Origin: an uncultured Planctomycetia bacterium
GTDB taxonomy: Bacteria; Omnitrophota; Gorgyraeia; 2-02-FULL-51-18
Reading direction: 5' to 3'
Length of the DNA stretch: 64,000 nt
Assembly: GCA_964606485.1 (NCBI GenBank)
Contig: CAZSGP010000001.1
Coordinates: 225,085-289,084, forward strand
Numbering within the stretch: the stretch's first letter is position 1; every line of letters starts with the position of its first letter. The position numbers and the translations under genes were made by a program. This document shows positions 5,010 to 20,943 of the stretch, piece after piece. The notes beneath the pieces are model-generated. The model saw only the letters and a program-made list of their open reading frames with translations, was not told the origin of the DNA and did no database searches.

Positions 5010-5255
5010 ATGGCGCTGACCCCGATTGAGGTGAAAGTCTTAAGTCCTCAGCGGCTCATTTTTGAAGGGCAAGCAAAGAGCATCATTCTCCCGGGAGAAT
5101 CGGGTGTTTTTGAAATTGCCCCGCATCACAAGCGTTTACTTTCCAGATTATTAGGCGGTTTTGTCATTATTGACAATAAGCGCATGTCGATTAAGCGCGG
5201 TGTAGTCAAGGCAGGCTTAAACAAAGTGACAATTATCGTTGAAGAAGATGATTAA
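5010..5255 (+). CDS. atpC: F-type ATPase epsilon subunit, N-terminal beta-sandwich domain only (81 aa). The C-terminal helical hairpin is absent.
   Basis: 'LTPIEVKVLSPQRLIFEGQAKSIILPGESGVFEIAPHHKRLLSRLLGGFVII' matches the epsilon consensus (LxVVTPE...PG..G..GILP.HAPLLT.L.PG.V.I). The protein stops after ~80 aa, with no helical domain. Confidence 0.7.
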   Translation: MALTPIEVKVLSPQRLIFEGQAKSIILPGESGVFEIAPHHKRLLSRLLGGFVIIDNKRMSIKRGVVKAGLNKVTIIVEEDD

Positions 5256-6804
5256 AAAAAACGCTCCGGTTATATTTATTTTTTTGATGGGGATTGGCCT
5301 TTATGTCAATTCTCTCTGCGGCCCATTTATCTATGACGATCTAGAGCTCGTCCGGAACAACGGCAAACTCCAAAGTTTCCAGGCTCTTTCGCAATCCTTT
5401 AAGCAGGATATTAATTTATCGACGGGCCGGACCGGTTTTTTTTACCGGCCCTTTCTTCAGGTGACTTATGCCTTGGACAGTCATTTTTGGAAGGGAAGGG
5501 TTTATGGGTATCATGCCACGAGCATTGTGCTTCACGCGCTTGCGGCTTTGGCGCTCGCTTCTTTAATTTTCATTCTTTTTGGAGATAAACTCGTCGCGTT
5601 TTTAACAGCTCTTTTGTGGCTCGTGCACCCTGTGCATACCGAAGCTGTTTCTTATATTTCAGGACGCGCCGATCCTCTGGCAGCACTCCTACTTTTGTTG
5701 GCGCTTATTTTTTATGTGAGGGGAGACTATGCACACCGGCTGCGAAATCTTTCCCTGCTCATCATTTTTTATGCGCTTGCACTCCTATCTAAAGAACATA
5801 GCCTTATTTTTTTAGCCCTGATCGCTCTCGTTCATCTTGTTTTTAAGAAGCGAATTCAGTGGCCGGCGCTAATTGCGGTAGCGACACTTTCTCTTTTTTA
5901 CGGTTTTTTACGATTTTCTCAGTTACAGACCTTGCTTTCAAATCCTCTCAATCCCAGTACACTTGCGGAGCGTTTACCCGGTTTTTTTGTGGCAGTTGCT
6001 AAATATTTCAAACTTCTCGCGTGGCCTACGAATCTGCGAATGGAGTATGGCCTAAAAATATTCACATTTGCGGACCCTAGAGCCATAGTGGGGGTTGGTA
6101 TTTTAGCGGCCCTCTTTGCCTCTCTCTATTTTTTAAGAAAAAACCGTGTCTGGGTTTTTGGAATCGGCTGGTTTCTCATCACACTTTTACCGGTATCCAA
6201 TCTTTTTCCCATCAATGCATTTATGGCGGAGCACTGGCTCTATCTGCCCTCAATGGGGCTATGGCTCGCTTTTGCCGGCTTATTTTCAAGGGTGCTCCAG
6301 TCTCGCAAGCGTCTAGTTGCGGCACTCGCTTTGGCTGCACTCGCTTCGATGTATAGCCAGGCGACAATGGCTCAAAACAGTTATTGGAGTGACGCGGTAC
6401 TCTTTTACGAACGCACGTTGAAATTTGAACCCAATAATGCGCGCATGTGCAATAACCTCGCCGGAGTTTACAAAGATAGGGGAGACTTTGAGAGCGCAAA
6501 AACTTTCTACCAAAAAGCAATTACCATTGATCCGAATATTGCCGATGTTTATTTTAATTTGGGGACGATTTACGCTCAGGAGAATGATTTGGGAACAGCC
6601 ATGGATTGTTACCAGAAAACCGTTGAGCTGAATCCCAATTTTGCGCTGGCCTACAACAACATGGGCGCGCTTTACCAGGCGCACGGTCAAAATGAGCTCG
6701 CTTTGCTACAATACGAAAAGGCACTAAAACTCAATCCAAACTACAAGCGAGCCGCTGAAAATCTTTCAAATATTAAAATGAGATTGGGGAAGAGCAATGG
6801 ATAA
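5239..6804 (+). CDS. TMTC/PMT-like GT-C family membrane glycosyltransferase (DUF1736-type) with C-terminal TPR repeats.
   Basis: About 10 predicted TM helices. 'FIYDD' acidic motif in loop 1 and 'HPVHTEAV' motif. The C-terminus has about 4 TPR units ('NNLAGVYKDRGDFESAKTFYQKAITIDPN...'). The start overlaps the atpC stop by 17 nt and the stop overlaps the atpE start by 8 nt. Confidence 0.7.
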   Translation: MKKMIKKNAPVIFIFLMGIGLYVNSLCGPFIYDDLELVRNNGKLQSFQALSQSFKQDINLSTGRTGFFYRPFLQVTYALDSHFWKGRVYGYHATSIVLHALAALALASLIFILFGDKLVAFLTALLWLVHPVHTEAVSYISGRADPLAALLLLLALIFYVRGDYAHRLRNLSLLIIFYALALLSKEHSLIFLALIALVHLVFKKRIQWPALIAVATLSLFYGFLRFSQLQTLLSNPLNPSTLAERLPGFFVAVAKYFKLLAWPTNLRMEYGLKIFTFADPRAIVGVGILAALFASLYFLRKNRVWVFGIGWFLITLLPVSNLFPINAFMAEHWLYLPSMGLWLAFAGLFSRVLQSRKRLVAALALAALASMYSQATMAQNSYWSDAVLFYERTLKFEPNNARMCNNLAGVYKDRGDFESAKTFYQKAITIDPNIADVYFNLGTIYAQENDLGTAMDCYQKTVELNPNFALAYNNMGALYQAHGQNELALLQYEKALKLNPNYKRAAENLSNIKMRLGKSNG

Positions 6805-7015
6805 AAATGTCGCTATTATTTTGGTCTTCACGCTTTGCATTTTGGGGCCAACCGCCATTATTGCCGCGGCAGGGCATGCCAGTATTTCAGCTCTCGGCCG
6901 TAATCCCTCGGCCGCTCCCAAGATCTTTACCGCTATGACGATGATGCTCATCTTTGGCGGTATGATTTCCATTGTGGCTCTGCTTGTTCTTTTTCAGCTT
7001 TACGCTACCAAATAA
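6797..7015 (+). CDS. atpE: F-type ATPase subunit c-like proteolipid (72 aa helical hairpin). It apparently lacks the conserved ion-binding Glu/Asp in helix 2.
   Basis: Two hydrophobic helices joined by the polar loop 'ALGRNPSAAPK' (compare the conserved c-subunit 'ARQP(E/D)' loop). Helix 1 is Ala/Gly-rich ('IIAAAGHASISALG'). It sits directly upstream of the b/delta gene. No acidic residue occurs anywhere in helix 2 ('IFTAMTMMLIFGGMISIVALLVLFQLYA'). Confidence 0.6.
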   Translation: MDKNVAIILVFTLCILGPTAIIAAAGHASISALGRNPSAAPKIFTAMTMMLIFGGMISIVALLVLFQLYATK

Positions 7016-7074
7016 AGACAGCCCCCCTCCTTGCTTTTTTTGTTAATTTTTGTTAAAATTTAGATAAAATTTAA

Positions 7075-7151
7075 TGTCATTGCGAGGAGCTTTTGCGACG
7101 AAGCAATCTAGATTTTAGAGCGAGATTGCTTCGCTGACGCTCGCAATGACA
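7075..7151. repeat. Copy 1 of a ~77-bp palindromic intergenic repeat (REP/MITE-like double-stem hairpin).
   Basis: tgtcattgcgag...gaagcaatct..agattgcttc...ctcgcaatgaca. The outer 12-bp and inner ~10-bp inverted repeats are shared with copies at ~22234 and ~25578. Coordinates are +/-2 nt. Confidence 0.75.
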
Positions 7152-7165
7152 AATAGGGGAGTTCG

Positions 7166-7894
7166 ATGCTATTTTTAGTTCTAGTGGTTATTCAGCTCGT
7201 CATCTTCGGTGTCCTGATTTTTCTCCTTAAAAACGTCCTCACCCGCAATGTCCGCACGGCGACCGCGCACCTGAATGAGTTGAACCAAGACTACACTCAA
7301 AAAATGGACGAAGCCAATAAGCGCATGCACGAAGCGGAAAAATTTTACGATGACGCGATTTTGCGATCCAAGACCGATGCCGAACGAGCAAAAATGGAAA
7401 TTTTAAAAGAGGCGCGGTCGCAAGATGAGCAGATTGTAGGGGATGCGCGAAAACAAAGCACCGAAATTTTGGAGCAGGCGCGCCGCGCGCGGGATCTCAT
7501 GATTGAAGAGATTGAACAGAAAATTGAAGTCCGCGCTGTTGAAAGGGCGAGCGAGTTTCTGGCTCAGATCCTTCCTTCTGAAATCAGTATGGATATGCAC
7601 ACTAAATGGACCGAGCAAATCCTTAAAAAAGGATTTTCGGATTTGTCGCGCATGAATTTTCCGGACGGGGAGCTCAAAGTAAAAATTATTTCGGCTTACG
7701 AATTGACAGCGGATCAAAAATCTCAAATCGAAGAAATTCTCCGCACCGCGCTCAAGCGTGAATTTTCTCTGGAAACAGCGTCCGACGTCAGTTTGGTTGC
7801 CGGTATCCAGGTAACAGTGGCCAGTATCGTGATTGACGGAACACTGAAATTTAAGATCCGGGAGATAGCCCGCCGTGCCCAACGAACTGAATAA
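7166..7894 (+). CDS. atpFH: Compact F-type ATPase b-delta fusion stator subunit. It has an N-terminal TM helix, a b-like coiled coil and a delta/OSCP C-terminal domain.
   Basis: N-terminal TM 'LFLVLVVIQLVIFGVLIFLL'. A charged coiled coil typical of subunit b. The C-terminus 'LVAGIQVTVASIVIDGTLKFKIREIARRA' matches the delta C-terminal consensus (LLGGV.V.IGD.VIDGSVRGRLERLA). At 242 aa it is too short to contain a delta N-terminal domain. Confidence 0.7.
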   Translation: MLFLVLVVIQLVIFGVLIFLLKNVLTRNVRTATAHLNELNQDYTQKMDEANKRMHEAEKFYDDAILRSKTDAERAKMEILKEARSQDEQIVGDARKQSTEILEQARRARDLMIEEIEQKIEVRAVERASEFLAQILPSEISMDMHTKWTEQILKKGFSDLSRMNFPDGELKVKIISAYELTADQKSQIEEILRTALKREFSLETASDVSLVAGIQVTVASIVIDGTLKFKIREIARRAQRTE

Positions 7895-8028
7895 TTGGCC
7901 GAAAAAGCCCATCTGCTGCGTTGCTCTCTGCGCTTCCTCAGTCGACGTACGTAAGCGTACGCCTTCTTCGGTCGCTTGGTCGCGCCTTGCATATAGGCTT
8001 TTTGGACCAATTATTGAAGACGGTGAAA

Positions 8029-9501
8029 ATGGCTCCTGATACGACTACGGCGCAGTTTGAAATGCGCGAAGTAGGGCATTTAAAATCCATTAAGCGCTTT
8101 ATTGCTGTGACCGACGACTTGAACTCCTGTATCAATGGCCAGCTCGTGGAGTTTGAAAAAGGAGCGCGCGGCATTGTCATGGGATTTACACACGACAAAA
8201 TTCAAATTTTAGTTCTAGGGCCCACCCAAGGAATCCGTTTGGGGGACGAAATTTATAATCGCGGCGAGTCCTTCAATCTCCCAGTGGGTGAAAAATTTAA
8301 AGGCCGCGTGGTGACCGCTCTCTGCGAGCCAGCGGACGGGCTCGGACCCATTCATGCAGATGACCGGTACCCGGTTTTTCAAGACGCACCCGGCATTATT
8401 GACCGCGAACAGCTCACCGAAACCATGGAAACCGGAACATTTGCGCTCGATGCCGGTATTCCTATTGCCAAAGGACAGCGCCAGCTTTTAATCGGCGACC
8501 GTGGAACGGGAAAAACAACAATCGGCATTGACGCCATTCTCAATCAAAAGGGAAAAGGTGTTATCTGTATTTATTGCGTGATTGGGAAACCGTATTCGAG
8601 CCTTGTCAAAACCTTAGGTCTCCTTCATGAACAGGGGGCGATGGAGCACACGATTGTCGTGAGTGCGGTCGCATCGACCTCTCCTGGTGAGCAGTACATC
8701 GCGCCGTACACTGCGGCGATGCTGGGCGAATATTTCATGAAATCCGGTCGTGATGTGCTTTGCATTTTTGACGATCTCACGAAGCACGCGTGGGTTTACC
8801 GACAAATTTCACTGCTCCTCGAGCGACCTCCGGGTCGCGAAGCGTATCCGGGTGACATTTTTTATATTCACTCTCAACTTTTAGAGCGCGCCGGGCGATT
8901 CACCAAAGATTTAAAGGGCGGTTCGATGACATTTTTACCGATTGTCGAAGTGCTGCAGGGGGACGTGACGGGTTACATCCCCACCAATATTATTTCCATC
9001 ACCGACGGGCAAACGTATTTTTCGACGAACCTTTATAACAAAGGCCACAAGCCCCCGATCGATTTCGGTTTGTCGGTGTCGCGTATTGGAAATAAGGGAC
9101 AGTGGTCGGCCATGAAAGACGTGTCGAAGAGTCTCCGCTTGGAATACCTTCAGTACCAGGAAATGCTTCAGATGACTCAGCTTCGCTCCGGAGGCCTTTC
9201 AAAAGACTCGGAGGCGCGTTTAAAGCGCGGGGAAGCGCTGACGCAGCTTTTAGTGCAGACCAAAAATAAACCGGTTTCTATTCCAGAACAAGTGTTTTTT
9301 TTAATTGCGCTCGGAAAAGGGGTTCTTGACCCGCTTCCTGCGGCACAGATCAAAAAATTTAAAGTGGAAATTTCCGACTTCGTCGATAAAAAAGACCCTG
9401 CAATTTTAAAAGAGCTCAACGAAACAAAAAAACTAACGGACGCAAACAAAGAAAAAATCGTGAACTGTTTAAAGCAGTATTTTGAAAGCGTGGGAGGCTA
9501 A
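8029..9501 (+). CDS. atpA: F-type ATPase alpha subunit.
   Basis: P-loop 'GDRGTGKTTIGIDAILNQKG' and overall F1-alpha architecture. The internal Met at 8029 was chosen because the upstream 36 codons look non-native. Confidence 0.9.
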   Translation: MAPDTTTAQFEMREVGHLKSIKRFIAVTDDLNSCINGQLVEFEKGARGIVMGFTHDKIQILVLGPTQGIRLGDEIYNRGESFNLPVGEKFKGRVVTALCEPADGLGPIHADDRYPVFQDAPGIIDREQLTETMETGTFALDAGIPIAKGQRQLLIGDRGTGKTTIGIDAILNQKGKGVICIYCVIGKPYSSLVKTLGLLHEQGAMEHTIVVSAVASTSPGEQYIAPYTAAMLGEYFMKSGRDVLCIFDDLTKHAWVYRQISLLLERPPGREAYPGDIFYIHSQLLERAGRFTKDLKGGSMTFLPIVEVLQGDVTGYIPTNIISITDGQTYFSTNLYNKGHKPPIDFGLSVSRIGNKGQWSAMKDVSKSLRLEYLQYQEMLQMTQLRSGGLSKDSEARLKRGEALTQLLVQTKNKPVSIPEQVFFLIALGKGVLDPLPAAQIKKFKVEISDFVDKKDPAILKELNETKKLTDANKEKIVNCLKQYFESVGG

Positions 9502-10358
9502 TGCTCCCAGCAACGTTCATCAAGCGGCAGATTGATTTCAATAAACAATTCCGCTCGCTCTTGGACGTGATGAAACTTGTGGCCGTATCCCAGTACCATA
9601 TTTTGGAAAAAAAGCTTCAGTATTTTGATTTGTTCGGTGAAGTGCTCACAGAGTTTTTTGATTCGATTGATGTGAGCCGTGTGAATCACCCTTTTTTAAA
9701 CGGGGGAGACAAGCCGGTAGGGGTTTTGGCGATCACGTCCGACGGGGGACTTTTAGGTGGCATGAACATGCAGGTCATTGCAAAGGCGGTGGATATTTTG
9801 TCGCGTCAGCCAGGAAAGCTGATCATCGTGGGGGAACGTGGACAGATTTATGCGCAGGGTTTTGGAATGTCCTTCACCTACTTTACCGGGATCATCGACA
9901 ACGAGCGCTACGCGCAGGCGATGACGGTGCGGGATTATGTGACGCAGGAAATTTTAAATGGAAATTTAGGGGGATTAAAAGTGGTGTTTCCGAGAGCGTT
10001 GTCGCTCGTGATGAATAAAATTGAAGTCGAGACGCTCGTACCCTTTACGCGTAAAGACGCCGAGGGTGCCGCGCCTAAAACTGGCGGAAGTCTAGCGCAA
10101 GTGATTTTAGAAACGCGCCCTGAAGACATTGCGGAATACTTGGTTTACTTGTACGTAGGGGAGCGGCTATACGAAGTGTTTGGCATGGCGCGACTCGCCG
10201 AACAAGCGGCACGTTTTGTGCACTTGGAAGAAAGCTGTCAAAAAATTCAGGATATGAACAATAAATTGCTCCTTCAGTATTTTAAACGACGTCATGAAAT
10301 TATCGATTCCAATATGCGCGAACTTTTTTCCGCAAAGAAAGCTTATGCCGATGGCTGA
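9501..10358 (+). CDS. atpG: F-type ATPase gamma subunit.
   Basis: 285 aa, gamma-like N- and C-terminal helices ('...LYVGERLYEVFGMARLAEQAARFVHLEES...'). It overlaps the alpha stop by 1 nt and the beta start by 8-14 nt. Confidence 0.8.
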   Translation: MLPATFIKRQIDFNKQFRSLLDVMKLVAVSQYHILEKKLQYFDLFGEVLTEFFDSIDVSRVNHPFLNGGDKPVGVLAITSDGGLLGGMNMQVIAKAVDILSRQPGKLIIVGERGQIYAQGFGMSFTYFTGIIDNERYAQAMTVRDYVTQEILNGNLGGLKVVFPRALSLVMNKIEVETLVPFTRKDAEGAAPKTGGSLAQVILETRPEDIAEYLVYLYVGERLYEVFGMARLAEQAARFVHLEESCQKIQDMNNKLLLQYFKRRHEIIDSNMRELFSAKKAYADG

Positions 10359-11757
10359 GGATAAGAAAATTTTAACGCCGGGAAAAGTAGTGGGTGTTCA
10401 AGGTCCCGTGGTGGACGTGCGGTTTACCCTTCAAAAGGACGTGCCCGATATTTACAACGTCATTCATGTTCAGTCCATGGACAACCGAAAAGTAACGCTT
10501 GAAGTCGTGGAGCATTTGCCTGGAAATTTAGCGCGCTGTATCGCCATCGAATCCACTCAAAATCTTCAGCGTTTTGCCGTGGGCCAACCGTCTGGAAAAC
10601 CCGTTGAAATTCCGGTCGGGGACTGTCTTTATACGCGCTGCGTGAATGTGCTCGGCCAGCCCATCGACAAAATGGGTCCGATTGAGTCTAATCTTTACAT
10701 GCCTATCCGCCGGCCGGAGTCGGGCACGCGAGTTCCGGACTTTAGTAAACAAAAGCGCCGTGGCGAAGAAGTGCTAGAAACGGGTATTAAAATTATCGAT
10801 CTGCTTTACCCGCTCGTCAAAGGAACAAAAACGGGGATCTTAGGGGGAGCGGGTCTTGGAAAAAGCGTTATCACGCTCGAAGTCATTCACCACGTCGTGC
10901 AAAAACATCAGGGTTCGTGCGTTTTTGCGGGTATCGGAGAGCGCTTGCGCGAAGGAAACGAACTTTTTTATGAACTGCGTGAACATGATCTTCACACCAA
11001 AACCATGCTCGTGTTTGGACAGATGAATGACCCGCCCGGCGCGCGTTTCGGTGTGGCTATGACCGGAATCACCATGGCTGAAGCCGTGCAAAAACAAAAC
11101 AAAGACGTGATCTTCTTTGCCGACAACGTGTTTCGTTTTATTCAAGCCGGAGCCGAAATTTCGACCCTGCTTGGCCGCGTGCCGTCCGAAACAGGGTATC
11201 AACCGACACTCATTTCCGAGTCGAGCGAATTTCATGAACGCATCCGCGAAGGGCAGGGCACCGGCGGATCGATCACCTCTATTGAAGCCGTTTACGTTCC
11301 CGCCGACGACATGACCGACCCTGCCGTCGTGGCCATCTTCTCATTTTTAAATTCTTTAATGGTGCTTTCCCGCGAACGCGTGCAGATGGGACTTTACCCA
11401 GCGATTGACCCGCTTCAATCGTCCTCGTCTAATTTAGATCCGGACGTGGTGGGCCAGCGCCATTACGACGCCTCCCAAGAAGTTATGCGCGTGTTCCAAA
11501 AATACGAAGAACTCCGCCGCATCGTTATGGTGATCGGAATCGACGAATTGTCCAAAGCCGACCGTACGATTTACGAACGCGCCCGGAAAATGCAATTTTT
11601 TCTGACTCAGCCTTTCGCCGTAGCAGAACGCTACACCGGCAAAAAGGGCGAGCACGTCCCCATCCGCAACACGCTAGATGGCTGTGAAAGAATATTATCT
11701 GGTAAAATGGACCGCAAACCTGAGCAAGAGTTTTACATGATCGGATCATTGGTTTGA
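10351..11757 (+). CDS. atpD: F-type ATPase beta subunit (catalytic).
   Basis: Walker A 'GGAGLGKSV', 'VFAGIGERLREGNELF' and DELS motif 'DELSKADR'. The start is at MAEDKK (10351) or MPMAEDKK (10345). Confidence 0.9.
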   Translation: MAEDKKILTPGKVVGVQGPVVDVRFTLQKDVPDIYNVIHVQSMDNRKVTLEVVEHLPGNLARCIAIESTQNLQRFAVGQPSGKPVEIPVGDCLYTRCVNVLGQPIDKMGPIESNLYMPIRRPESGTRVPDFSKQKRRGEEVLETGIKIIDLLYPLVKGTKTGILGGAGLGKSVITLEVIHHVVQKHQGSCVFAGIGERLREGNELFYELREHDLHTKTMLVFGQMNDPPGARFGVAMTGITMAEAVQKQNKDVIFFADNVFRFIQAGAEISTLLGRVPSETGYQPTLISESSEFHERIREGQGTGGSITSIEAVYVPADDMTDPAVVAIFSFLNSLMVLSRERVQMGLYPAIDPLQSSSSNLDPDVVGQRHYDASQEVMRVFQKYEELRRIVMVIGIDELSKADRTIYERARKMQFFLTQPFAVAERYTGKKGEHVPIRNTLDGCERILSGKMDRKPEQEFYMIGSLV

Positions 11758-11776: not shown

Positions 11777-12232
11777 ATGCTTCTAGGAGAACGCTTAGTC
11801 AGACTCGGTAAAATTACCGAAGATCAATTGAATGAAGCGCTGACAGAGCAAAAAAATACGAGTGAGTTTTTGGGGAATATTTTGCTCCGGCGTGCTTGGA
11901 TTCGTGAAGACGACTTAACCGAAGTTTTATCCGAGCAGTTCGAGATGCCTTTTATGAAACTCAAGAACGAGTATCTTGACTGGAATTTGATTTTGACATT
12001 TTCGTCAACACTTGTCGTAGAACACAAATGCGTCCCCTTTCGAAAAGACGAAAAAGGGTACACGGTTGCGATCACCAATCCTTTAGACGCGATGGCTATC
12101 AGTGAGGCAGAGAAGCTGGCGCAAAGGGGAGACCGGGTTTCGATTGTTTTGGTGACGCCCAGTCAGATGCATACGGTGATTCGTGAGTATCAAAAACGTT
12201 TATCCGATAAAATAAAAGGACTATTGGGGTAA
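11777..12232 (+). CDS. Stand-alone MshEN/T2SSE_N domain protein (GspE N-terminal domain, a likely c-di-GMP-binding module).
   Basis: 'LGERLVRLGKITEDQLNEALTEQ' fits the MshEN motif RLG..L(V/I)..G.I....L..AL..Q. A good RBS lies 20 nt after the atpD stop. Confidence 0.65.
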   Translation: MLLGERLVRLGKITEDQLNEALTEQKNTSEFLGNILLRRAWIREDDLTEVLSEQFEMPFMKLKNEYLDWNLILTFSSTLVVEHKCVPFRKDEKGYTVAITNPLDAMAISEAEKLAQRGDRVSIVLVTPSQMHTVIREYQKRLSDKIKGLLG

Positions 12233-12238
12233 AAGCGC

Positions 12239-14404
12239 GTGATTACTAAAATTGACACCACGCTCGTCAAACTTCTCGTCGAAAAAAATTTAATCGACCA
12301 GGAAACACTTTCGCCCTTTATCGAAGAAGCGGGAAAATCCAAAGACAATCTTTATGTGCTCCTTTTGCGCTCCGGAAAATTTCCAGAAGAGCGTTTGCTT
12401 TTAGGGCTTTCAGAGGCAATGAAAGTTCCGCTGGTGGAGCTTGGGTCTAAGCAGCCGGACACCACGGTGATTGAAAAAGTACCGCTTAAGATTGCCGAGT
12501 ACTATAAACTCGTTCCGCTCAAAATCGAAAATCGAAGGCTCACTATTGCCATTTCAGCGCCCTTTGATGTCCGCACCCAAGATGACATTCACACTCATTT
12601 GGGCTTTGATCTGGACCTGGTTTTAGCCAGAGAGAAAGATGTCTTAGACGCCATTAAACGTTTCTACGGATTCGCGACCGGAACCATCAATGAAATGATC
12701 GCGTCCGGTTCAGATATTGCGACAACCCTGCCGGACCGCGCTTTTGAAGCCGTGGAAAACATTGAAAAGCTCGCCGGTGACGCATCGATTGCAAAGCTTG
12801 TGAATCAGATTATTCTAGAGGCATTTCGAAAACGCGCGACCGATATTCACTTAGAGCCTTACCGCGGAAAAGTAAAACTACGCTACCGCATTGACGGCAC
12901 GCTGTACAACGCGAACGTTCCGCCTGAAATTGGCCGTTTTATTTTGCCTATTTTGTCGCGCATTAAAATCATGTCGAATTTAAACATCGTCGAAAAACGT
13001 CTCCCGCAAGACGGGCGCGCGATTGTAAAAATTGAAGACACTCAGCTTGACCTTCGCGTGTCCTCGATCCCCACGCCTTACGGCGAAAGTGTGGTGGTGA
13101 GAATGCTCCCCATGAACCGCGTGATCAGTCTCACTCAACTCGGGCTCGGCAACCGGGAACTCAATTTATTTCAGACGATGATTAAAAAACCACACGGAAT
13201 TATTTTTATCACGGGTCCGACCGGCAGCGGAAAAAGCACGACTCTTTACGCGTGTCTCAATCAGCTCAACTCCGACGACCGGAAAATTATCACGATTGAA
13301 GATCCGGTTGAATACGAAATGGAGGGCGTCACTCAAATTCAAGTGGCCGGCAACATTGGCCTTGATTTTGCAAAAGGTTTGCGCAGTATCCTGCGTCATG
13401 ACCCAGACGTCATCATGGTGGGAGAGGTTCGCGATCTCGAGACTGCTGAAACAGCCATCCGCGTCGCACTCACCGGACATCTTGTTTTTTCAACGCTTCA
13501 CACCAACGATTCGGCAAGCTCTGTTACGCGTTTAGTGGATATTGGTGTTGAGCCGTATCTTGTTTCCTCGAGCGTTGAAGCGTTTATTGCTCAGCGACTT
13601 GTGCGAACGATTTGTTCGCATTGTAAACAAGAAGACAAGACGATGACGCAGTACGAAGCCAAAAAATTAATCGCCAAAGAAACGGACACCAAAGTAGACG
13701 ATGTGCGGCTTTTTTATGGCAAAGGATGCAATCAGTGCAATAACACTGGCTTCTGGGGACGCGTGGCCATTTATGAAATTCTTCTCATGAACGACAAGTT
13801 GAGAGATCTTGTGATGCAGAAAGCGTCGGCGGAAGAAATTAAAAAACTAGCCGTGGCTCAAGGCATGCGCACGCTTCGCCAGGATGGTTGGGAAAAAGTG
13901 TTGGCCGGTGTCACGACGCCGGAAGAAATTTTAAAAGTAGCCCCGGCAGATAAGGCAGGGGAGATTCTCTCGCCCGAACTTAGATCTGAAGAACCCGTTT
14001 CCACGAAGGAAGCAGCGGAAAATATTATTTCCCGTTACAACGATCGCCGTCAATTTGAACGCTTAAAAGACACGGTGAATATTCGTTACCGGATTATCAA
14101 ATCCAAAGACCCGATTCGCAAAATGGCTCCGAGCTCCGAAGAGTACACCGTCACGAAAGACGTGTCTGCGGGCGGACTACTGCTTGTCACGCGAGAAAGT
14201 ATTCCGGTCGGATCGATACTCGAGCTAAAAGTAGAATTGCCCGACGGACCCCCAGCTATTGAATGTTTAGCGAAGGTGATGCGCGAAGAGGAGCTCGTCA
14301 AAGAAAATATGTTTCAGCTCGGCATTTGCTTTTTAGATCTCACGGGTTCTCAGCGAGCGCGTTTGTTCAAGTATGTTGAGACGGAAGGCGGAGTGGCCGC
14401 ATGA
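12239..14404 (+). CDS. gspE: Type II secretion / type IV pilus assembly ATPase (GspE/PilB family) with a C-terminal PilZ domain.
   Basis: T2SSE_N N-terminal domain. Walker A 'GPTGSGKST', Walker B 'DPDVIMVGEVRD', His-box 'LVFSTLHTNDSAS' and tetracysteine 'CSHCK...CNQCNNTG'. C-terminal extension with PilZ motifs 'DRRQFER' and 'DVSAGGLLL'. Probable GTG start. Confidence 0.9.
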   Translation: MITKIDTTLVKLLVEKNLIDQETLSPFIEEAGKSKDNLYVLLLRSGKFPEERLLLGLSEAMKVPLVELGSKQPDTTVIEKVPLKIAEYYKLVPLKIENRRLTIAISAPFDVRTQDDIHTHLGFDLDLVLAREKDVLDAIKRFYGFATGTINEMIASGSDIATTLPDRAFEAVENIEKLAGDASIAKLVNQIILEAFRKRATDIHLEPYRGKVKLRYRIDGTLYNANVPPEIGRFILPILSRIKIMSNLNIVEKRLPQDGRAIVKIEDTQLDLRVSSIPTPYGESVVVRMLPMNRVISLTQLGLGNRELNLFQTMIKKPHGIIFITGPTGSGKSTTLYACLNQLNSDDRKIITIEDPVEYEMEGVTQIQVAGNIGLDFAKGLRSILRHDPDVIMVGEVRDLETAETAIRVALTGHLVFSTLHTNDSASSVTRLVDIGVEPYLVSSSVEAFIAQRLVRTICSHCKQEDKTMTQYEAKKLIAKETDTKVDDVRLFYGKGCNQCNNTGFWGRVAIYEILLMNDKLRDLVMQKASAEEIKKLAVAQGMRTLRQDGWEKVLAGVTTPEEILKVAPADKAGEILSPELRSEEPVSTKEAAENIISRYNDRRQFERLKDTVNIRYRIIKSKDPIRKMAPSSEEYTVTKDVSAGGLLLVTRESIPVGSILELKVELPDGPPAIECLAKVMREEELVKENMFQLGICFLDLTGSQRARLFKYVETEGGVAA

Positions 14405-15654
14405 TTTATTCGTACCGGGCTAAAAAAGGGCCCAAAGAGCTCGTAGAAGGAACGATAGAAGCGCTGACTGTCGAGGATGCGATTGAGCGGCTCAGCGAAA
14501 AAGGGCTTTTGCCAATCGACGTTCAAGAAGCTAAAGTTCAAGCGGTCGAAGCGCCGAGTCCCCGCGCATCGACGAAGCCTTTACCGCGCAGTCAGCCGGG
14601 CCGCATTACACTTTTTGGAGGGATACGGTCGTCCGAGATCACTGTTCTTTCCCGGCAATTGGCGAGCCTGCTCAAAGCGGGCGTGCCTATTTTGCAAGGT
14701 CTTTGGATTTTGTCCGAACAAACTCAAAATCCGAAACTTAAAAAAGTTTTGACGCACATTCAAGAAGAGGTTAATAACGGTAAATCTCTCTCAGCGATTT
14801 TTTCGCTCTACCCAAAATATTTTCCTCCTATTTACATTGCCATGATTCGCACCGGAGAAGATAGCGGCACGCTTGACTCGGCCCTTTCTCGAATTGCCGA
14901 ATACCGCCGCAAACAGGAAGAAATGCGCTCGCGTGTTCTTTCGGCGATGGCGTACCCGATTCTCATGGCCATCACCGGAGCGGGAACCGTGATATTTATG
15001 CTCACGTTCGTGATTCCAAAGCTAACCAAACTATTTGCAAATTTAGGCCAGAGTCTGCCGGCTCCCACGCGCATTCTGATGACGATGAGTGAATTTTTAA
15101 AACAGCCGGCATTTTGGGGTGTGATCGGCATTCTTGTTGTGGCATTTAATTTATGGGTAAGACTTGCTCCGCAAATGGCACGCGCGGCGTGGAGCGCATT
15201 TAGTTTGAAATTGCCCATCATTAAAGGATTTGTGATGAAATCCGAGATGGCGCGTTTTTCAAGAACCATGGAGCTTCTTTTAAAATCGGGCGTCACGGTT
15301 TTAAGAGCCATTGAAATTACGACGCCGGTTTTAAAGAATGTAATTTTGCGCGCTGAATTTTCAAAGGCCTACCAATCCATCACCGGGGGAGGGTCGCTCG
15401 GAAAATCTTTAAAGGAATCCAAAATAGTGCCGATGTTTGTTTCAAACCTGATCTCGATTGGCGAAGAATCCGGAAAATTAGACGACACAATGAGCGAAAT
15501 CGCGGACTTATATGAACGCGAAACCGACGAGGCGATCCGCGTGATGACCTCGCTGATGGAACCGCTGATGATTTTAGTGATGGGCGGCATTGTGGGTTTT
15601 ATTGTGATTGCGATGATGTTGCCGATGTTTGAATTGAATATGGCAGTTAAATGA
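14401..15654 (+). CDS. gspF: T2SS/T4P platform protein (GspF/PilC family).
   Basis: Duplicated GspF domain architecture with three TM segments. The 4-nt start/stop overlap with gspE is typical. Confidence 0.9.
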   Translation: MIYSYRAKKGPKELVEGTIEALTVEDAIERLSEKGLLPIDVQEAKVQAVEAPSPRASTKPLPRSQPGRITLFGGIRSSEITVLSRQLASLLKAGVPILQGLWILSEQTQNPKLKKVLTHIQEEVNNGKSLSAIFSLYPKYFPPIYIAMIRTGEDSGTLDSALSRIAEYRRKQEEMRSRVLSAMAYPILMAITGAGTVIFMLTFVIPKLTKLFANLGQSLPAPTRILMTMSEFLKQPAFWGVIGILVVAFNLWVRLAPQMARAAWSAFSLKLPIIKGFVMKSEMARFSRTMELLLKSGVTVLRAIEITTPVLKNVILRAEFSKAYQSITGGGSLGKSLKESKIVPMFVSNLISIGEESGKLDDTMSEIADLYERETDEAIRVMTSLMEPLMILVMGGIVGFIVIAMMLPMFELNMAVK

Positions 15655-16535
15655 ATGCAAAACAATCGCAAAACGTCGACGGGTCCTGCCGGCGGTTGTC
15701 CGTTCGGAACCACCTGCGGTGGCTTCCGAGACGGACGCCTACCGCCGTCACCCCTCGACGTTTCGCGATTTTAAGCATTCTCGCTCTATCGATCTGCTGG
15801 TGTTTGGGGGTAGGGGCAGCCGACTGGCAAGAAGTCAAAGGCGATCACTTCATCGTGTATTACATGCAGAACGAGAAGTTCGCCAAAGACACAGCGCATA
15901 AAGCCGAGCAGTATTATGTGAGCATTGCCGACGAACTGGGGTATCCGCGCTACTCCAATTTTTGGCAGTGGGATAACCGGGTTAAAATTTATATTTACCC
16001 AACCCAAGCGGATTATTTAAAGGGGTCGGGCGAGCCAGCGTGGTCGAAGGGCTTCGCGCGCTACAAAACGAAGGACATTTTGACGTATGAGTGGAGCGAC
16101 AGTTTTTTAGAAGCTTTGCTCCCGCATGAAATTACCCATTTAATTTTTAGGGATTTTGTTGGATTCAAAGGCGAAATTCCTCTCTGGATGGACGAGGGGG
16201 TTGCGCAGTGGCAGGAGCCTAAGAAACGGGAAGCTGCCAAAGAAATTGCGAGATATCTTTTAAAGAACCAAAAAGCATTTACGTTTGAATCGCTGATGCA
16301 AATGGACATTCGCGGTTCAAAAAATGAAGAAGAAGTTTACAATTTTTACATGCAATCGGTGACGATTGTGGATTTTATGGTCAAGCGCTACGGCGCGCAA
16401 AGTTTTACCGAGTTCTGCCGGCAGTTGCGGGATGGGAAATCGCTGAATGAAGCTTTGCGGTTTGCTTACCCTGCATCGGGCGGGAATATTGAAAATTTGG
16501 AGAAAGAATGGAAAAAAGTCGTGATGGAGGAATGA
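15651..16535 (+). CDS. Membrane-anchored HExxH-motif protein (putative zinc metallopeptidase-like) embedded in the secretion/pilus operon.
   Basis: Arg-rich N-terminus, then one TM ('FAILSILALSICWCLGVGAA'). 'LPHEITHLIF' HExxH motif. ATGA overlap with the gspF stop. Confidence 0.5.
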   Translation: MNAKQSQNVDGSCRRLSVRNHLRWLPRRTPTAVTPRRFAILSILALSICWCLGVGAADWQEVKGDHFIVYYMQNEKFAKDTAHKAEQYYVSIADELGYPRYSNFWQWDNRVKIYIYPTQADYLKGSGEPAWSKGFARYKTKDILTYEWSDSFLEALLPHEITHLIFRDFVGFKGEIPLWMDEGVAQWQEPKKREAAKEIARYLLKNQKAFTFESLMQMDIRGSKNEEEVYNFYMQSVTIVDFMVKRYGAQSFTEFCRQLRDGKSLNEALRFAYPASGGNIENLEKEWKKVVMEE

Positions 16536-16948
16536 TGATGAAGAACAATAAAAGTGGTTTTACCCTGATCGAATTGATGCTCGTGGTTATTATTATCGGC
16601 GCGCTCGTGGCGATGGTGATGCCGCGTTTAGCCGGTCGTTCCGAGCAAGCCAAAACAGCGGCCGCTCAAGCGGATATCAGTGCCAATATTGCAACCGCTC
16701 TCAAGTTGTACGAGCTCGATAACGGGCACTATCCCGGAACGGATGAGGGCGGACTAAGCGCGCTGCAAACCAAGCCCGGCAACGCTAATAATTGGAAGGG
16801 TCCTTATATTGAAAAGAAGCCTCTGGATCCATGGGGCCGTGAATATCAATACAAGTGTCCGGGCCAACACCGCACTTATGATTACGATCTCTATTCTCTG
16901 GGTCCTGACGGCCAGGAAAGCACGGATGATCCCAAAAACTGGCAATAA
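16532..16948 (+). CDS. gspG: Major pseudopilin (GspG / type IV pilin-like).
   Basis: Class III signal 'KSGFTLIELMLVVIIIGAL' with G|F cleavage and Glu+5. C-terminal GspG-like 'GPYIEKKPLDPWGREYQY'. Confidence 0.85.
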   Translation: MMMKNNKSGFTLIELMLVVIIIGALVAMVMPRLAGRSEQAKTAAAQADISANIATALKLYELDNGHYPGTDEGGLSALQTKPGNANNWKGPYIEKKPLDPWGREYQYKCPGQHRTYDYDLYSLGPDGQESTDDPKNWQ

Positions 16949-17321
16949 GGGGTTTACGCTCGTTGAGCTGATGGTCACGGTGTCCGTTTTGTCTTTGGGC
17001 CTCGTGCTTATCAACGGGTCTTTGCTTCGGATTGCGGACTTGCTAAGCCGCTACAATAATTCACTTGCAGGTTACCGCTGGATGAACGAAAAAATCTGGG
17101 AGTCCAAAGAAGCTTTGTTTTATTCTGAGGAGCCCTCTTCCAGTACCAGTGGTACTGGTGTGATGTCCTTAAACCGAAAGGATGCTTATTGGGTGTTGAG
17201 AGATGAAGATGTTGCCGGTGCCAAAGGAACGCATCTGCTCGACTTGTCTCTCGGGTGGCAACAGGGGCAGGAATTTATTAAGATTACGAAAACGTGTTAT
17301 GCCTCCAGGTCGACGACCTAG
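16926..17321 (+). CDS. Minor pseudopilin (GspH/I-like).
   Basis: 'NKGFTLVELMVTVSVLSLGL' prepilin signal. The internal Met start overlaps the gspG 3' end. Confidence 0.7.
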   Translation: MIPKTGNKGFTLVELMVTVSVLSLGLVLINGSLLRIADLLSRYNNSLAGYRWMNEKIWESKEALFYSEEPSSSTSGTGVMSLNRKDAYWVLRDEDVAGAKGTHLLDLSLGWQQGQEFIKITKTCYASRSTT

Positions 17322-17916
17322 ACTTACCGGTGGATGCGCGGGATTTTCTCTCGTCGAGCTTCTCATCGTTGTTACGCTTGTTCCGATTATTTCTTTAGCG
17401 ATATTTTTTTGTTTCCGCAACTCTACGCTTTTATGGCAGACCTTAAATCAAGAGATGCCCGAAGAAAATATCGCTATTTTTAATCTTCGCGCCGAAACGG
17501 ATTTTAGACAAGCGCTGAGGTATAAAACCATTCCATTTTTTGGATCCGCTCAAGAAGTCTCTTTTGCGGATTATGTTCAAACTCTCGAAACCGTTGGGGG
17601 CGAACACGGAATCGGGGAAGTGAAATACCGCTACGATGAAACGAAGCAGATCGTGATTCGTGAAGAGAGGAATATGAGCGATCTCCACACTCAAAAGCTT
17701 AGAATGTCGAAGGTTGTTTTGCAAAACGTCGACAATTTTTTACTCAGCTACTTAGGGAAGAACGAGCAGACTCACCAGTATGTTTGGCACGAAGAGTGGC
17801 AGCAGCCCGGACGCAAGAGTCTTCCGTGCGCCGTGAAACTTGACTATACCCAAACCACCAGTTTGGGCAATCAGACTTACACCGCCGTTTTTGAAATTCC
17901 GACGGGCGAAGGCTAA
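17299..17916 (+). CDS. Minor pseudopilin (GspJ-like).
   Basis: 'AGFSLVELLIVVTLVPIISLAIFF' prepilin signal. The start was chosen at the internal Met upstream of the signal. Confidence 0.65.
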   Translation: MPPGRRPRLTGGCAGFSLVELLIVVTLVPIISLAIFFCFRNSTLLWQTLNQEMPEENIAIFNLRAETDFRQALRYKTIPFFGSAQEVSFADYVQTLETVGGEHGIGEVKYRYDETKQIVIREERNMSDLHTQKLRMSKVVLQNVDNFLLSYLGKNEQTHQYVWHEEWQQPGRKSLPCAVKLDYTQTTSLGNQTYTAVFEIPTGEG

Positions 17917-17919
17917 GGC

Positions 17920-18933
17920 ATGCGCCAATCTTCAAAAGGGAGCATTTTAGTTTTGTCCTTGTGGGTGCTGGCACTCACGAGCTCTTTTGCTGTAAGTTTG
18001 GGTTATGGGGTTCGTCAGAAAATGACGCTGCTCTCCAGATTAGAAACGCACGCCATACAGTTCCCAATCACCGAAACGGGTGTTCAAAAAGCGCGCGGCA
18101 TGCTGATGGCCGCCGGACCCGTTCAAACCTGGGATTGTCTTTTTGATCCCTGGTATAACAATAAAAGCGCATTCGCCTCGATAGAACTGCCGGAAGGGAC
18201 TTGCCGCGTCACGACGGAGATTTCAGACGGCCACAGCGACACCAAAAAAACGATCTATGGAATAATCGATGAAGAGCGGAAAATTAACATCAACGTATCC
18301 GACGCCAAAACAATTTCCCGCTTGATTCAAAAAGCGGCGTCACTGAGTGAAGGTGAGGCGGATAGTTTGGCCTACAACATCGTCGATTGGCGAGACTCCG
18401 ATTCTTTTTACGGACACCCTAATTTTGGCGCGGAAGATAAGGACTACGAGGATAATAATCCGCCATACGAAGCCAAAGATTCGAATTACGAAACGATTGA
18501 AGAATTATTTTTGGTAAAAGACATAACGGGTAAAATTTTTGCTAAAATAGCGCCTTATCTTACGGTGTACGGTGAAGGCGCCGTGAATATCAACACAGCT
18601 TCCGAGGAAGCGCTGTTTGCGCTTGGATTTGACGAGGGGCTGCTGGATAAAATTTTTCAATACCGCGCCGGAGTCGACCGCGAAGAAGGCACCGCCGATG
18701 ACCGTGTTTTTAGGGAAGCTCAAAATATCGTGAGCGATTTAAATGGTTTTGTGCTTCTGAATCCCACTGAAAAAATTCCTTTGGAAAATGCGGTGGATAA
18801 AGAGATTGTTGGAGTTAGCTCTCTGCACTTTCGAGTTCACTCGGTGGGGCTTCTCAAAAAAGAAGTGCCGCCCATGGAAATTGATGCGGTGGTCACAAAA
18901 AAAGGTCAGATAGTGTCGCTGAGGATTCTGTAA
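17920..18933 (+). CDS. gspK: Minor pseudopilin GspK.
   Basis: 'RQSSKGSILVLSLWVLALTS' GspK-type N-terminus. Helix-hairpin-helix-like 'NINTASEEALFALGFDEGLLDKIFQYRA'. Confidence 0.7.
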   Translation: MRQSSKGSILVLSLWVLALTSSFAVSLGYGVRQKMTLLSRLETHAIQFPITETGVQKARGMLMAAGPVQTWDCLFDPWYNNKSAFASIELPEGTCRVTTEISDGHSDTKKTIYGIIDEERKININVSDAKTISRLIQKAASLSEGEADSLAYNIVDWRDSDSFYGHPNFGAEDKDYEDNNPPYEAKDSNYETIEELFLVKDITGKIFAKIAPYLTVYGEGAVNINTASEEALFALGFDEGLLDKIFQYRAGVDREEGTADDRVFREAQNIVSDLNGFVLLNPTEKIPLENAVDKEIVGVSSLHFRVHSVGLLKKEVPPMEIDAVVTKKGQIVSLRIL

Positions 18934-18937
18934 TCGC

Positions 18938-20383
18938 ATGAAAAAGACCGGAGATTTTTTAGGAATTGAGATCGGGGCGACGCATCTTAAGATTGCGCAC
19001 GTGCGCTCGACAGGTTTGCGGCGCGAAGTAGTGGATTTGATCGCTCAAGAAATCCGGGAAATGAACGACGAAGATGTCGCGGCTTTTATCAAGCGTTCAA
19101 CTGCGTCTCTTAATTTAAAGGATCCTGTTGTTTATTTGAGCGTGCCGCTTCATGCCGTGATCACGCGAAGCATTGAAATTCCATCCCGCGATCCCGAAGA
19201 AATTAAGGAAATCGTAAATCTCCAAGCTAGCCGCCACACTCCCTACTCGCGCTCGGAAATTATTATCGATATGTCAACGCTCGGTGTGGTTCGGGAAAAC
19301 TACACCAAAGTGCTTCTTGTTATAGCGCCCAGAGATTTGGTCACGCGCCAAACAAAAATACTTCAGCGCGCGGGGATGGCCCTTAAGAAAGTGATTTTTT
19401 CACCCGAAGGTCTTTGTATAGCCGTTTCAAAAATTTTAAATATCGAAAATTCTGATGCCACCGTGGCCGTGATTCACATGGACTCGGCCTATACGAGTTT
19501 TTTAGTCACCCAGCGCTCTAAAATCTTGTACGTGAGAGGCATTTCGATTGGGGCTGAACAGCTGATGAATGAAAGGGAATTGTACGCTGAAAAATTTGTC
19601 GACGAATTGACTAAGTCGCTCGAATCTTACACCGCTGACGAAGCGGGCCCCAAAATTTCTCAGGCGGTGTTAACCGGTGTACTGGGCGAGGCAACGGATC
19701 TGGATGACCTTTTCCGGGAATCCCTTCAAATGTCAATTCGACACCAGACTTACTTCAACACATTTACCATTTCGGCGGGTGCTCGGGCCGTGGCAGTCGC
19801 TTCCAAAATGGTTTCTTTTTTTGGAGTGGTCAGCTCGCTCTTACTGTTTGATAAGATAAAAATCGATCTCGTGACCGAAGAGCGGAGGCTAGAGCTCGAA
19901 CTGCATGCACGCGCTAAGCAAATGCTCACGACCGGCGTTTTAACATTGATCGTCCTTGTGTTTTTATTCACCACGTTTACGAGTAAAATCTATTTTAAGA
20001 AAACCTATCTCCATAATTTAATCGCCCGTTACCAGCACACGAAAGAGGAGGCCAAGGGTCTTGAAGAAGTGTTTTCAAAGACACAGGTGATAAAGGATTA
20101 TTTGTCGGGCCGCGGCCAGTCGCTCGAGGCCTTGACACAGGTGTATGATGCGCTTCCTGGGGATGTAAGGGTGGTTGGACTGCGCTACGACGAAGCAGAG
20201 AGATTTACGGTCCGAGGAACATCACGCAGCATGTCGTCCGTGTTTGCATTTGTGACGAATCTAGAAAAATCAAGCGAGTTTCAGAACGTCAAAGCCAAAT
20301 ATGTCACTGCGCGCGCCGAGGAAGGCCAGGACGTGCAAGATTTTGAGATTTCCATGATGATTGAGAAAGGTTCGGGAGCCTAA
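18938..20383 (+). CDS. GspL-like assembly protein. It has a PilM-type actin-like cytoplasmic domain fused to a TM and a PilN-like periplasmic domain.
   Basis: N-terminus 'FLGIEIGATHLKIAHV' (PilM/actin-like fold). A mid-protein TM 'LTLIVLVFLFTTFTS'. Position in the cluster. Confidence 0.55.
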   Translation: MKKTGDFLGIEIGATHLKIAHVRSTGLRREVVDLIAQEIREMNDEDVAAFIKRSTASLNLKDPVVYLSVPLHAVITRSIEIPSRDPEEIKEIVNLQASRHTPYSRSEIIIDMSTLGVVRENYTKVLLVIAPRDLVTRQTKILQRAGMALKKVIFSPEGLCIAVSKILNIENSDATVAVIHMDSAYTSFLVTQRSKILYVRGISIGAEQLMNERELYAEKFVDELTKSLESYTADEAGPKISQAVLTGVLGEATDLDDLFRESLQMSIRHQTYFNTFTISAGARAVAVASKMVSFFGVVSSLLLFDKIKIDLVTEERRLELELHARAKQMLTTGVLTLIVLVFLFTTFTSKIYFKKTYLHNLIARYQHTKEEAKGLEEVFSKTQVIKDYLSGRGQSLEALTQVYDALPGDVRVVGLRYDEAERFTVRGTSRSMSSVFAFVTNLEKSSEFQNVKAKYVTARAEEGQDVQDFEISMMIEKGSGA

Positions 20384-20943
20384 TGCTTTCAAAATTCTCC
20401 GCGTTTTATCAAAAATTTTCTAAAAGAGAAAAACAAATCTTTTGGGGGACCGCTTTGGTTGTCGGGTTCCTTGTTGTTGACCGCGTAGCTCTCGGTCCTG
20501 CCGTCGGAAAAGTGGGGCAGTTAGACTCTCAGATCAAGCAGGAAGAATCCGCCATCCGTAAATCCATGAGTGTGTTGCTTAGAAAAGAGCAGATTGCTCA
20601 GGAAAGTAAGCAGTTTGAGGTTTTTTCGGTAGAAGCCAAAAATCCCGAAGAAGAGATGGTTGGTTTTTTAAAGGAACTTGAAACCATCGCGAGCCAATCC
20701 TCTGTCAATCTTTCGTACGTGAAGCCCGGAAGTTCCGATGAGTCCGGCGGAAAAACACGGAAGTATTACGCTTCTTTGGAATGCGAAGCGCAAATGGAGC
20801 AGATCGCCGGATTTTTCCATAGCCTCGAAAGTTCGACCAAGCTACTTAAAATTGAAAAATACGAAATCCAGCCAAAATCAAAAGAGTCGAGCCTCGCTCG
20901 CTGCACCATGACGGTTTCAAAAACCGTTCTTCTTAAAATTTAA
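20383..20943 (+). CDS. GspM/PilO-like inner-membrane assembly protein.
   Basis: Single N-terminal TM ('IFWGTALVVGFLVV'), then a periplasmic domain. Last gene of the cluster, with an ATGA overlap. Confidence 0.4.
   Translation: MLSKFSAFYQKFSKREKQIFWGTALVVGFLVVDRVALGPAVGKVGQLDSQIKQEESAIRKSMSVLLRKEQIAQESKQFEVFSVEAKNPEEEMVGFLKELETIASQSSVNLSYVKPGSSDESGGKTRKYYASLECEAQMEQIAGFFHSLESSTKLLKIEKYEIQPKSKESSLARCTMTVSKTVLLKI

Follow-up and report, generated by a model that had tools for sequence, protein, structure and literature searches.

A PilB/GspE-family ATPase with a fused PilZ domain and an adjoining stand-alone MshEN protein in an Omnitrophota pilus locus

We analysed a 64,000-nucleotide stretch of an Omnitrophota genome (contig CAZSGP010000001.1; hereafter the window, meaning the whole 64 kb), in which two adjoining genes on the forward strand lie between genes of an F-type ATPase and genes of a type-IV-filament machine. 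The first (11777..12232; ATG start, with an AGGA ribosome-binding site 6 nt upstream) encodes a stand-alone MshEN protein of 151 amino acids (aa). The second (12239..14404; GTG start), whose product aligns with its homologues from Met1, encodes a PilB/GspE-family assembly ATPase of 721 aa that ends in a PilZ domain. An initial annotation of this DNA had described the pair as a secretion ATPase wired twice to cyclic diguanylate (c-di-GMP), a second messenger. The ATPase is built of an MshEN-like N1 domain (residues 8-147, 12260..12679), the T2SSE core (residues 179-565, 12773..13933), a linker (13934..14041) and the PilZ domain (residues 602-714, 14042..14380).

The ATPase core and its fused PilZ domain

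The core matches the T2SSE family over residues 179-565 with 432.2 bits (Pfam PF00437, cut-off 24.9). We assessed residue conservation in a 70-sequence alignment of ATPase orthologues drawn from related loci. In these 70 relatives the Walker A motif GPTGSGKS (residues 326-333, 13214-13237), E354/D355, MVGE393-396 and H421 are invariant, and all 70 keep the zinc tetracysteine Cys459/462/497/500 (13613-13738), which marks the extension-ATPase subgroup. The catalytic motifs and tetracysteine listed in the initial annotation are accordingly present, in ORFs (open reading frames) whose positions it gave correctly, and the PilB/GspE core is, as judged from these residues, catalytically intact. By NCBIfam scores the protein falls in neither the GspE equivalog (TIGR02533, 573.4 against a cut-off of 630.25) nor the PilB equivalog (TIGR02538, 567.8 against 675.65). 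Foldseek placed the core nearest to Geobacter PilB and Thermus PilF, with 45-47% identity and a template modelling (TM) score of ~0.9 (46-47% for G. metallireducens PilB), and farther from Vibrio EpsE and GspE (37-44% identity); none of the solved chains that it matched to the ATPase continues into a PilZ domain. An AlphaFold 2 (AF2) model of the 721-aa protein, built on an 83-sequence alignment, has a mean predicted local distance difference test (pLDDT) score of 82.9 and is confident for N1, for the ATPase core and for the barrel of the PilZ domain.

Between core and PilZ domain lies a linker of ~35 residues; in relatives its length is anywhere between 25 and 59 residues, and its sequence is not conserved. 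Its predicted structure (pLDDT <50 at residues 575-603) indicates a flexible, disordered tether. The PilZ domain that follows was recognised by Pfam at residues 602-714 with 49.8 bits (PF07238, cut-off 22.5, E = 4.5e-13). Both strings quoted in the initial annotation are there: 'DRRQFER' supplies R604 and R608 of the RxxxR motif (14048-14062), and 'DVSAGG' supplies D641, S643 and G646 of the DxSxxG motif (14159-14176). R604 and R608 are kept in 70/70 orthologues, D or N at 641 in 70/70, S643 in 68/70 and G646 in 70/70. The claim of a bona fide C-terminal PilZ domain thus withstands both tests proposed with it, a domain search of residues ~600-721 and an alignment of the key residues. AF2 predicts a six-stranded barrel and a C-terminal helix (residues 703-720) with a pLDDT of ~90. 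Searching the PDB by sequence with this region yielded no useful match; in a Foldseek search with the model of this part, the best matches were c-di-GMP-bound canonical PilZ structures with TM scores of 0.65-0.78 (MotI/DgrA at 0.78, then Alg44, PA, PP4397, YcgR and BcsA), while noncanonical Xanthomonas PilZ structures superposed only at a root-mean-square deviation (rmsd) of ~7 Å. By its sequence and predicted fold, the fused PilZ is a canonical one with every ligand-contacting residue kept.

The architecture is widespread among relatives. In a search of 5.8 billion proteins, the best 120 hits to the ATPase were 707-759 aa long, with 54-65% identity over 99% of the length; all 120 carried PF05157, PF00437 and PF07238, and the names given were Candidatus Omnitrophota or Omnitrophica. 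A scan of GTDB with one genome per species, which used patterns from the PilZ part only (alignment A2), revealed a relative in at least 120 species. Of the loci found, 80 were kept, almost all labelled Omnitrophota, with a small number automatically labelled otherwise, for instance as 'uncultured Planctomycetia'. The PilZ-ATPase fusion is the rule in Omnitrophota. The initial annotation had called such a covalent fusion uncommon; this is true of studied model organisms and of what has been published, and not of this phylum.

Searching from the most divergent full-length fusion (P0228) led to a sister clade labelled Planctomycetota/Brocadiia. The relatives in it (P0343-P0355) keep a C-terminal PilZ-like extension that scores below the Pfam PilZ threshold. 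RxxxR is present throughout this clade, and one subclade has A or G in place of the D/N of D/NxSxxG, a loss that may be a step toward a ligand-independent domain. When a representative protein library was searched with the PilZ profile, most top matches were contig-edge fragments of the fusion (e.g. P0127 and P0148); the full-length fusions merge into a few clusters at 50% in this library, and genuine stand-alone copies occur as well (P0125). The same library holds a 3205-aa protein with ten separate PilZ-like stretches (P0251).

Two variations on the arrangement were seen in related loci. Some relatives encode, directly downstream of GspE-PilZ, an extra stand-alone PilZ protein of 122 aa that nearly copies the fused domain, and ahead of gspF they have genes for a PAS histidine kinase and a single-domain response regulator (L083, 8001-11967; L002, 9195-11219). 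With these genes inserted between the ATPase gene and gspF, the site collects regulatory inputs. Some genomes have a second GspE/GspF pair nearby, in which the ATPase lacks the PilZ extension (L003, 12057-14587; L010, 17082-18569), which makes the fusion specific to one of the paralogous systems.

The stand-alone MshEN protein and the N1 domain

The 151-aa protein consists of an N-terminal 53-residue module of the c-di-GMP-binding type followed by an MshEN_C/T2SSE_N subdomain. The module was recognised by the NCBIfam profile NF053729 ('c-di-GMP_motif, MshE-related') at residues 3-54 with 63.9 bits (cut-off 38), and the subdomain by Pfam MshEN (PF05157) at residues 55-141. We compared the module in 52 stand-alone orthologues with the pattern of two 24-residue motifs, (R/K/L)LGxx(LVI)(LVI)xxG(LVI)(LVI)xxxxLxxxLxxQ, spaced by 5 residues. 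Motif I of the window's protein (residues 2-25, M-LLGERLVRLGKITEDQLNEALTEQ, 11780..11851) fits the extended (R/K/L)LGxx...Q consensus (PMC11731258), and motif II (residues 31-54, FLGNILLRRAWIREDDLTEVLSEQ, 11867..11938) follows after a 5-residue spacer; Gly3, Leu17, Leu21 and Gln24 are present in both. Across the orthologues the spacer is kept and, over both motifs, Leu17 and Leu21 are found in 45-50 of 52. Motif I starts with Arg in 22, Lys in 11 and Leu in 10 sequences and has Gly3 in 52/52, Leu17 and Leu21 each in 50/52 and Gln24 in 52/52. Motif II opens with Phe in 48/52 and has Gly3 in 52/52 and Gln24 in 49/52; the window's protein also has this Phe, which is off consensus.

The initial annotation had fitted the protein to RLGxxLVxxGxIxxxQLxxALxxQ. 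The motif is indeed intact, although position 1 of motif I is Leu and not Arg. This Leu is compatible with c-di-GMP binding: work on PilF GSPII-B has extended the consensus to (R/K/L), and its K167L variant binds c-di-GMP at 2 nM (PMC11731258). An N-terminal helix extension inhibits c-di-GMP binding by PilF GSPII domains (PMC12002112); motif I of the window's protein begins at residue 2. PDB sequence matches were the PilF GSPII domains (best), the N-domains of Geobacter and Myxococcus PilB and the V. cholerae MshEN structure 5HTL. All 61 database homologues are ~150 aa long and consist of MshEN only.

We counted the MshEN gene over the 62 related loci in which atpD is accompanied by a complete ATPase gene; a single copy is present in 45 of them, two copies in two and none in 15. 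Wherever present (47 loci), it stands directly before gspE. With only 47 of 62 loci carrying it, the MshEN gene is a real but accessory part of the system rather than a defining one.

The ATPase has an MshEN-like domain of its own. N1 matches Pfam MshEN at residues 62-147 with 64 bits, and an NCBIfam scan of the ATPase with the c-di-GMP motif profile NF053729 gave no match. Gly3 and Gln24, both of which were required for measurable c-di-GMP binding in the PilF work (PMC12002112), are almost entirely missing: among the 70 orthologues Gly3 occurs in none at motif I and in six at motif II, and Gln24 in none and one, respectively. We conclude from these sequences that N1 retains the MshEN fold and that its c-di-GMP site is dead across the family. 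The double wiring proposed in the initial annotation, which had overlooked this degenerate domain, is supported by the intact motifs of the PilZ domain and of the adjoining MshEN protein; with the cis MshEN motif dead, it would consist of PilZ in cis and MshEN in trans, in place of the usual cis-MshEN.

Interpretation, alternatives and known systems

Everything past the domain architecture we infer. We consider it fairly probable (about 0.62) that the ATPase is the assembly (extension) motor of an Omnitrophota-type machine, resembling a type II secretion system (T2SS) or type-4a pilus (T4aP), with a re-partitioned c-di-GMP input; ligand binding is predicted from the conserved residues. By analogy with other PilZ domains, c-di-GMP would bind the PilZ barrel through RxxxR and D/NxSxxG with roughly micromolar affinity. 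The MshEN protein would bind it more tightly, since Leu and Phe at position 1 of its motifs predict tight binding, as in PilF GSPII-B. Ligand-bound PilZ would then dock on, or release, the ATPase hexamer or the GspF/PilM-N platform and in this way gate pilus assembly, with the MshEN protein as a second input in trans with a lower threshold. It may pair with the dead N1 domain, so that the two would resemble a multi-GSPII PilF in split form, or else it may compete for the GspL/PilM-like partner. The output would probably be control over pilus- or pseudopilus-dependent attachment to a host or prey, together with the 'symbiotic' F-ATPase and large surface proteins.

A more far-reaching proposal is a two-tier switch in Omnitrophota and part of Planctomycetota. 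The ancestral cis MshEN would have been inactivated, a low-affinity PilZ would have become fused in cis, and a very-high-affinity MshEN module, set free as a subunit of its own, would dock on the dead N1, such that nanomolar and micromolar c-di-GMP set different motor states (e.g. recruitment versus firing). We put this forward tentatively and regard it as doubtful. If true, pili, 'symbiotic' F-ATPase and giant adhesins would be coordinated as these nanobacteria attach to host or prey.

Several observations weigh against the proposed c-di-GMP-controlled motor. The MshEN gene, being absent from 15 of the 62 loci, cannot be essential to the mechanism. The window's MshEN protein departs slightly from the consensus, with Lys at position 11 of motif I and Ala at position 10 of motif II. 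No GGDEF, EAL or HD-GYP gene was found in the 64-kb window, either by Pfam in ORFs of at least 120 aa or with six-frame regular expressions (GG[DE]EF, EAL, HD-GYP), so that the nearby diguanylate cyclases the initial annotation proposed to look for are not within this stretch; the sole EAL-like string belongs to an antisense ORF and is due to chance. Neither a secretin nor a prepilin peptidase was detected by Pfam among the ORFs of at least 120 aa in the window, in which the T2SS parts present are GspE, GspF, GspG, a GspJ-like protein, GspK, PilM-N (GspL-like) and a PilO-like protein.

Two alternatives accept the genes as they stand and assign them other functions. The fused PilZ could act between proteins as an adaptor that needs no ligand, as do the type II PilZ proteins XAC1133 of Xanthomonas and PA2960 of Pseudomonas, which bind PilB and not c-di-GMP; the fusion would then hard-wire a structural cofactor. 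Complexes in trans between PilB and nucleotide-nonbinding PilZ proteins are established (PMC8389850), and the Planctomycetota-labelled subclade described above lacks the D/N of the second motif. Non-binding PilZ proteins, however, are devoid of the RxxxR and D/NxSxxG residues that are kept almost without exception in Omnitrophota, and the predicted fold is like that of ligand-bound canonical PilZ and far from that of the noncanonical Xanthomonas proteins, which makes an adaptor quite unlikely. The stand-alone MshEN protein, for its part, might serve the upstream F-type ATPase or another target, leaving PilZ alone to connect c-di-GMP with the motor. The position of its gene between atpD and gspE, 19 nt past atpD, would suit this, MshEN domains regulate partners as varied as glycosyltransferases and response regulators (PMC5013675), and 15 of the 62 loci work without it. 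On the other hand, its invariable position directly before gspE, the several stop/start overlaps with that gene, the retained MshEN_C/T2SSE_N subdomain typical of the PilB/GspE N1 and the nearest solved relatives, which are all N-domains of pilus ATPases, point to the motor. A service to the F-ATPase is possible but disfavoured, and we rate it as unlikely.

Two further alternatives question the genes themselves. The 151-aa ORF might be no gene of its own but the N-terminal portion of a longer ATPase with several GSPII domains, as in PilF, which either was broken by a sequencing error or a mutation or is translated through the single in-frame TAA (12230-12232). In the window, the MshEN and ATPase ORFs do share a frame, separated by this stop and two codons, and Thermus PilF bears tandem GSPII domains. 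Comparison of the 47 loci contradicts a split or read-through gene: the frames are mixed (about one third in frame, the level expected by chance), the gaps range from -4 to +693 nt, several MshEN genes run 1 or 4 nt into the start of the ATPase gene, each of the three stop codons is represented, and the longest possible ATPase ORF is 774 aa. Because the homologues are, in addition, ~150 aa long and MshEN-only (61/61), we attribute the shared frame in the window to chance. The MshEN gene also has its own ribosome-binding site, and the ATPase aligns with its homologues from its first residue. On the strength of the 47-locus comparison and the homologue lengths, a split gene is refuted for practical purposes and very improbable. 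That the PilZ fusion is an artefact of assembly or gene calling has nothing in its favour beyond the general risk attached to metagenome-assembled genomes. The same architecture, 698-745 aa long, recurs in assemblies made independently of one another, hundreds in number and of varied study and source, with a continuous reading frame and a conserved linker position. The artefact reading is refuted, and the chance left to it is negligible.

Taken singly, the parts of the predicted c-di-GMP-controlled motor resemble known systems. In V. cholerae MshE (5HTL), M. xanthus PilB and C. perfringens PilB2, which belong to the same ATPase family, the second messenger controls the extension motor directly through an N-terminal MshEN. 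The same 53-residue two-motif module is found here on a stand-alone protein; unlike in these ATPases, the motor's own N-domain motif appears dead, the MshEN module is a separate polypeptide and a C-terminal PilZ has been added. Thermus thermophilus PilF has three tandem GSPII/MshEN domains, of which A is non-binding, B binds at 6 nM and C at ~0.3 μM. The Omnitrophota system similarly combines binding-type and non-binding MshEN-type domains, and has Leu or Lys instead of Arg at the first position of the motif, a trait shared with the high-affinity GSPII-B. In contrast to PilF, which is one chain without PilZ, the binding-type domain is encoded by a separate gene that is optional across species.

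PilZ-fold proteins are likewise known to act on pilus motors. In the X. citri PilB-PilZ-FimX system and with P. aeruginosa PilZ (PA2960), a PilZ-fold protein associates with the type IV pilus (T4P) extension ATPase and relays c-di-GMP status (PMC8389850). Those PilZ proteins are separate, noncanonical and non-binding, and FimX is the sensor, whereas here the PilZ is covalently attached and keeps all ligand residues. BcsA, Alg44, YcgR and MotI (DgrA) have canonical PilZ barrels with RxxxR and D/NxSxxG, by which the sensor is placed on the output machine, as here; the difference is that the output enzyme in the present case is a PilB/GspE-type ATPase.

The locus belongs to a type already published for Omnitrophota, in which giant ORF, 'symbiotic' F-ATPase and type-IV-pilus genes are clustered, and it has the same gene order (PMC10066038; bioRxiv 10.1101/2023.11.21.568195). 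A 'symbiotic' type-2/3 F-ATPase beside T4aP genes and giant ORFs has been reported for this phylum, with host-cell attachment or motility as the proposed role (Seymour et al. 2023, PMC10066038), as have T2SS-like loci and, in the neighbourhood of giant genes, small pilZ genes (West-Roberts et al. 2023, bioRxiv 10.1101/2023.11.21.568195). Neither PMC10066038 nor West-Roberts et al. 2023 mentions that PilZ is fused to the ATPase, that there is an MshEN partner or that c-di-GMP might control the enzyme. A PilB/GspE-type ATPase is not among the architectures given in PilZ reviews as a PilZ fusion partner, and we found no description of a T2SSE-PilZ fusion in reviews of PilZ, MshEN and PilB or in the Omnitrophota papers; most subscription journals lay outside this search, and absence from it is no proof. 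The fusion proteins are already in public databases with automatic domain calls. As far as we found, the parts are all of known kinds, and what is apparently undescribed is their combination, a canonical PilZ on a PilB/GspE ATPase with an inactivated MshEN and a detached MshEN subunit.

Control of T4P and T2SS motors by c-di-GMP is known in two forms, through an N-terminal MshEN site on the ATPase or through a separate non-binding PilZ adaptor with FimX. The effect of PilZ on the activity of the PilB hexamer is poorly understood, and a natural covalent PilB-PilZ fusion whose ligand site is intact and which is conserved throughout a phylum offers structural and biochemical studies of this question a 1:1 construct that already exists. 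The pair of a dead MshEN in cis and a live one in trans is, likewise, a natural experiment on the cooperation of GSPII domains. Omnitrophota are uncultivated, ultra-small, host-dependent or predatory bacteria. Our sequence comparisons suggest that a second messenger controls the pilus, F-ATPase and giant-protein genes whose clustering is their signature, a point that the published genome surveys do not discuss.

Gene order and other features of the window

All genes of the locus described here lie on the forward strand. The F-type ATPase genes (5010..11757) are directly upstream of the MshEN gene. They comprise delta/OSCP (7166-7894), alpha (7921-9501), gamma (9501-10358) and beta (atpD, 10294-11757), together with candidates for the epsilon (5010-5255) and c (6797-7015) subunits whose assignment relies on nothing but position and length; none of the genes of 5010-11757 was recognisable as encoding an a subunit. 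A TPR/membrane protein (5239-6804) is inserted among them, an insertion not seen in relatives. The packing is tight, with 19 nt from the end of atpD to the MshEN gene and 6 nt from there to the ATPase gene. The ATPase stop is overlapped by 4 nt by the start of the gene for the GspF/PilC platform protein (14401..15654; PF00482, 217 bits; TIGR02120, 371 bits), and mutual overlaps continue along the ATPase, GspF, Peptidase_MA_2 and GspG genes. The Peptidase_MA_2 gene (15651..16535; PF13485, 56.6 bits) encodes a metalloprotease-like protein with a HEITH zinc motif and an N-terminal hydrophobic segment. Next come genes for a GspG-like major pseudopilin, two minor pseudopilins (one GspJ-like), GspK, a PilM-PilN fusion (GspL-like) and a PilO-like protein (16508..20943; Pfam T2SSG, N_methyl, T2SSJ, T2SSK_1st, PilM_2+PilN and PilO).

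In the related loci compared, the order AtpB-[MshEN]-GspE-PilZ-GspF-peptidase-GspG is repeated across the phylum, and the adjacency of F-ATPase and pilus genes is likewise present. Upstream of the F-ATPase genes, relatives have a very large gene, whose product ranges from 2395 to 5919 aa. At this giant-ORF position the window encodes a 1383-aa protein with an Ig-like Kre9_KNH domain (37-4188), followed by a 262-aa protein without a family match (4214-5002) where relatives have a conserved, unannotated protein of ~260 aa. Most of the 80 related loci keep the Peptidase_MA_2 gene at its place between gspF and gspG; the gene product could be a processing enzyme or cargo.

A further PilZ protein noted in the initial annotation does exist (117 aa, encoded at 29521-29874; 58.3 bits; motifs RKDPR and DLSVTG). 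It shares only 21% identity with the fused PilZ and is encoded 15 kb away among unrelated genes, and in this context it shows no link to the pilus ATPase system.

The region 34944-62169, which is probably a mobile island, begins with a tyrosine integrase and continues with heavy-metal resistance genes. These encode RND pumps (38347-41499 and 53329-56727), three OEP outer-membrane factors, an HMBD multicopper oxidase, a CusB-like adaptor, an HMBD P-type ATPase, an ECF sigma/anti-sigma pair, and cation-efflux and MerC-like proteins. Finally, a 691-aa autotransporter (beta-domain 232 bits) is encoded at 26556-28631, a few kb downstream of the pilus operon.

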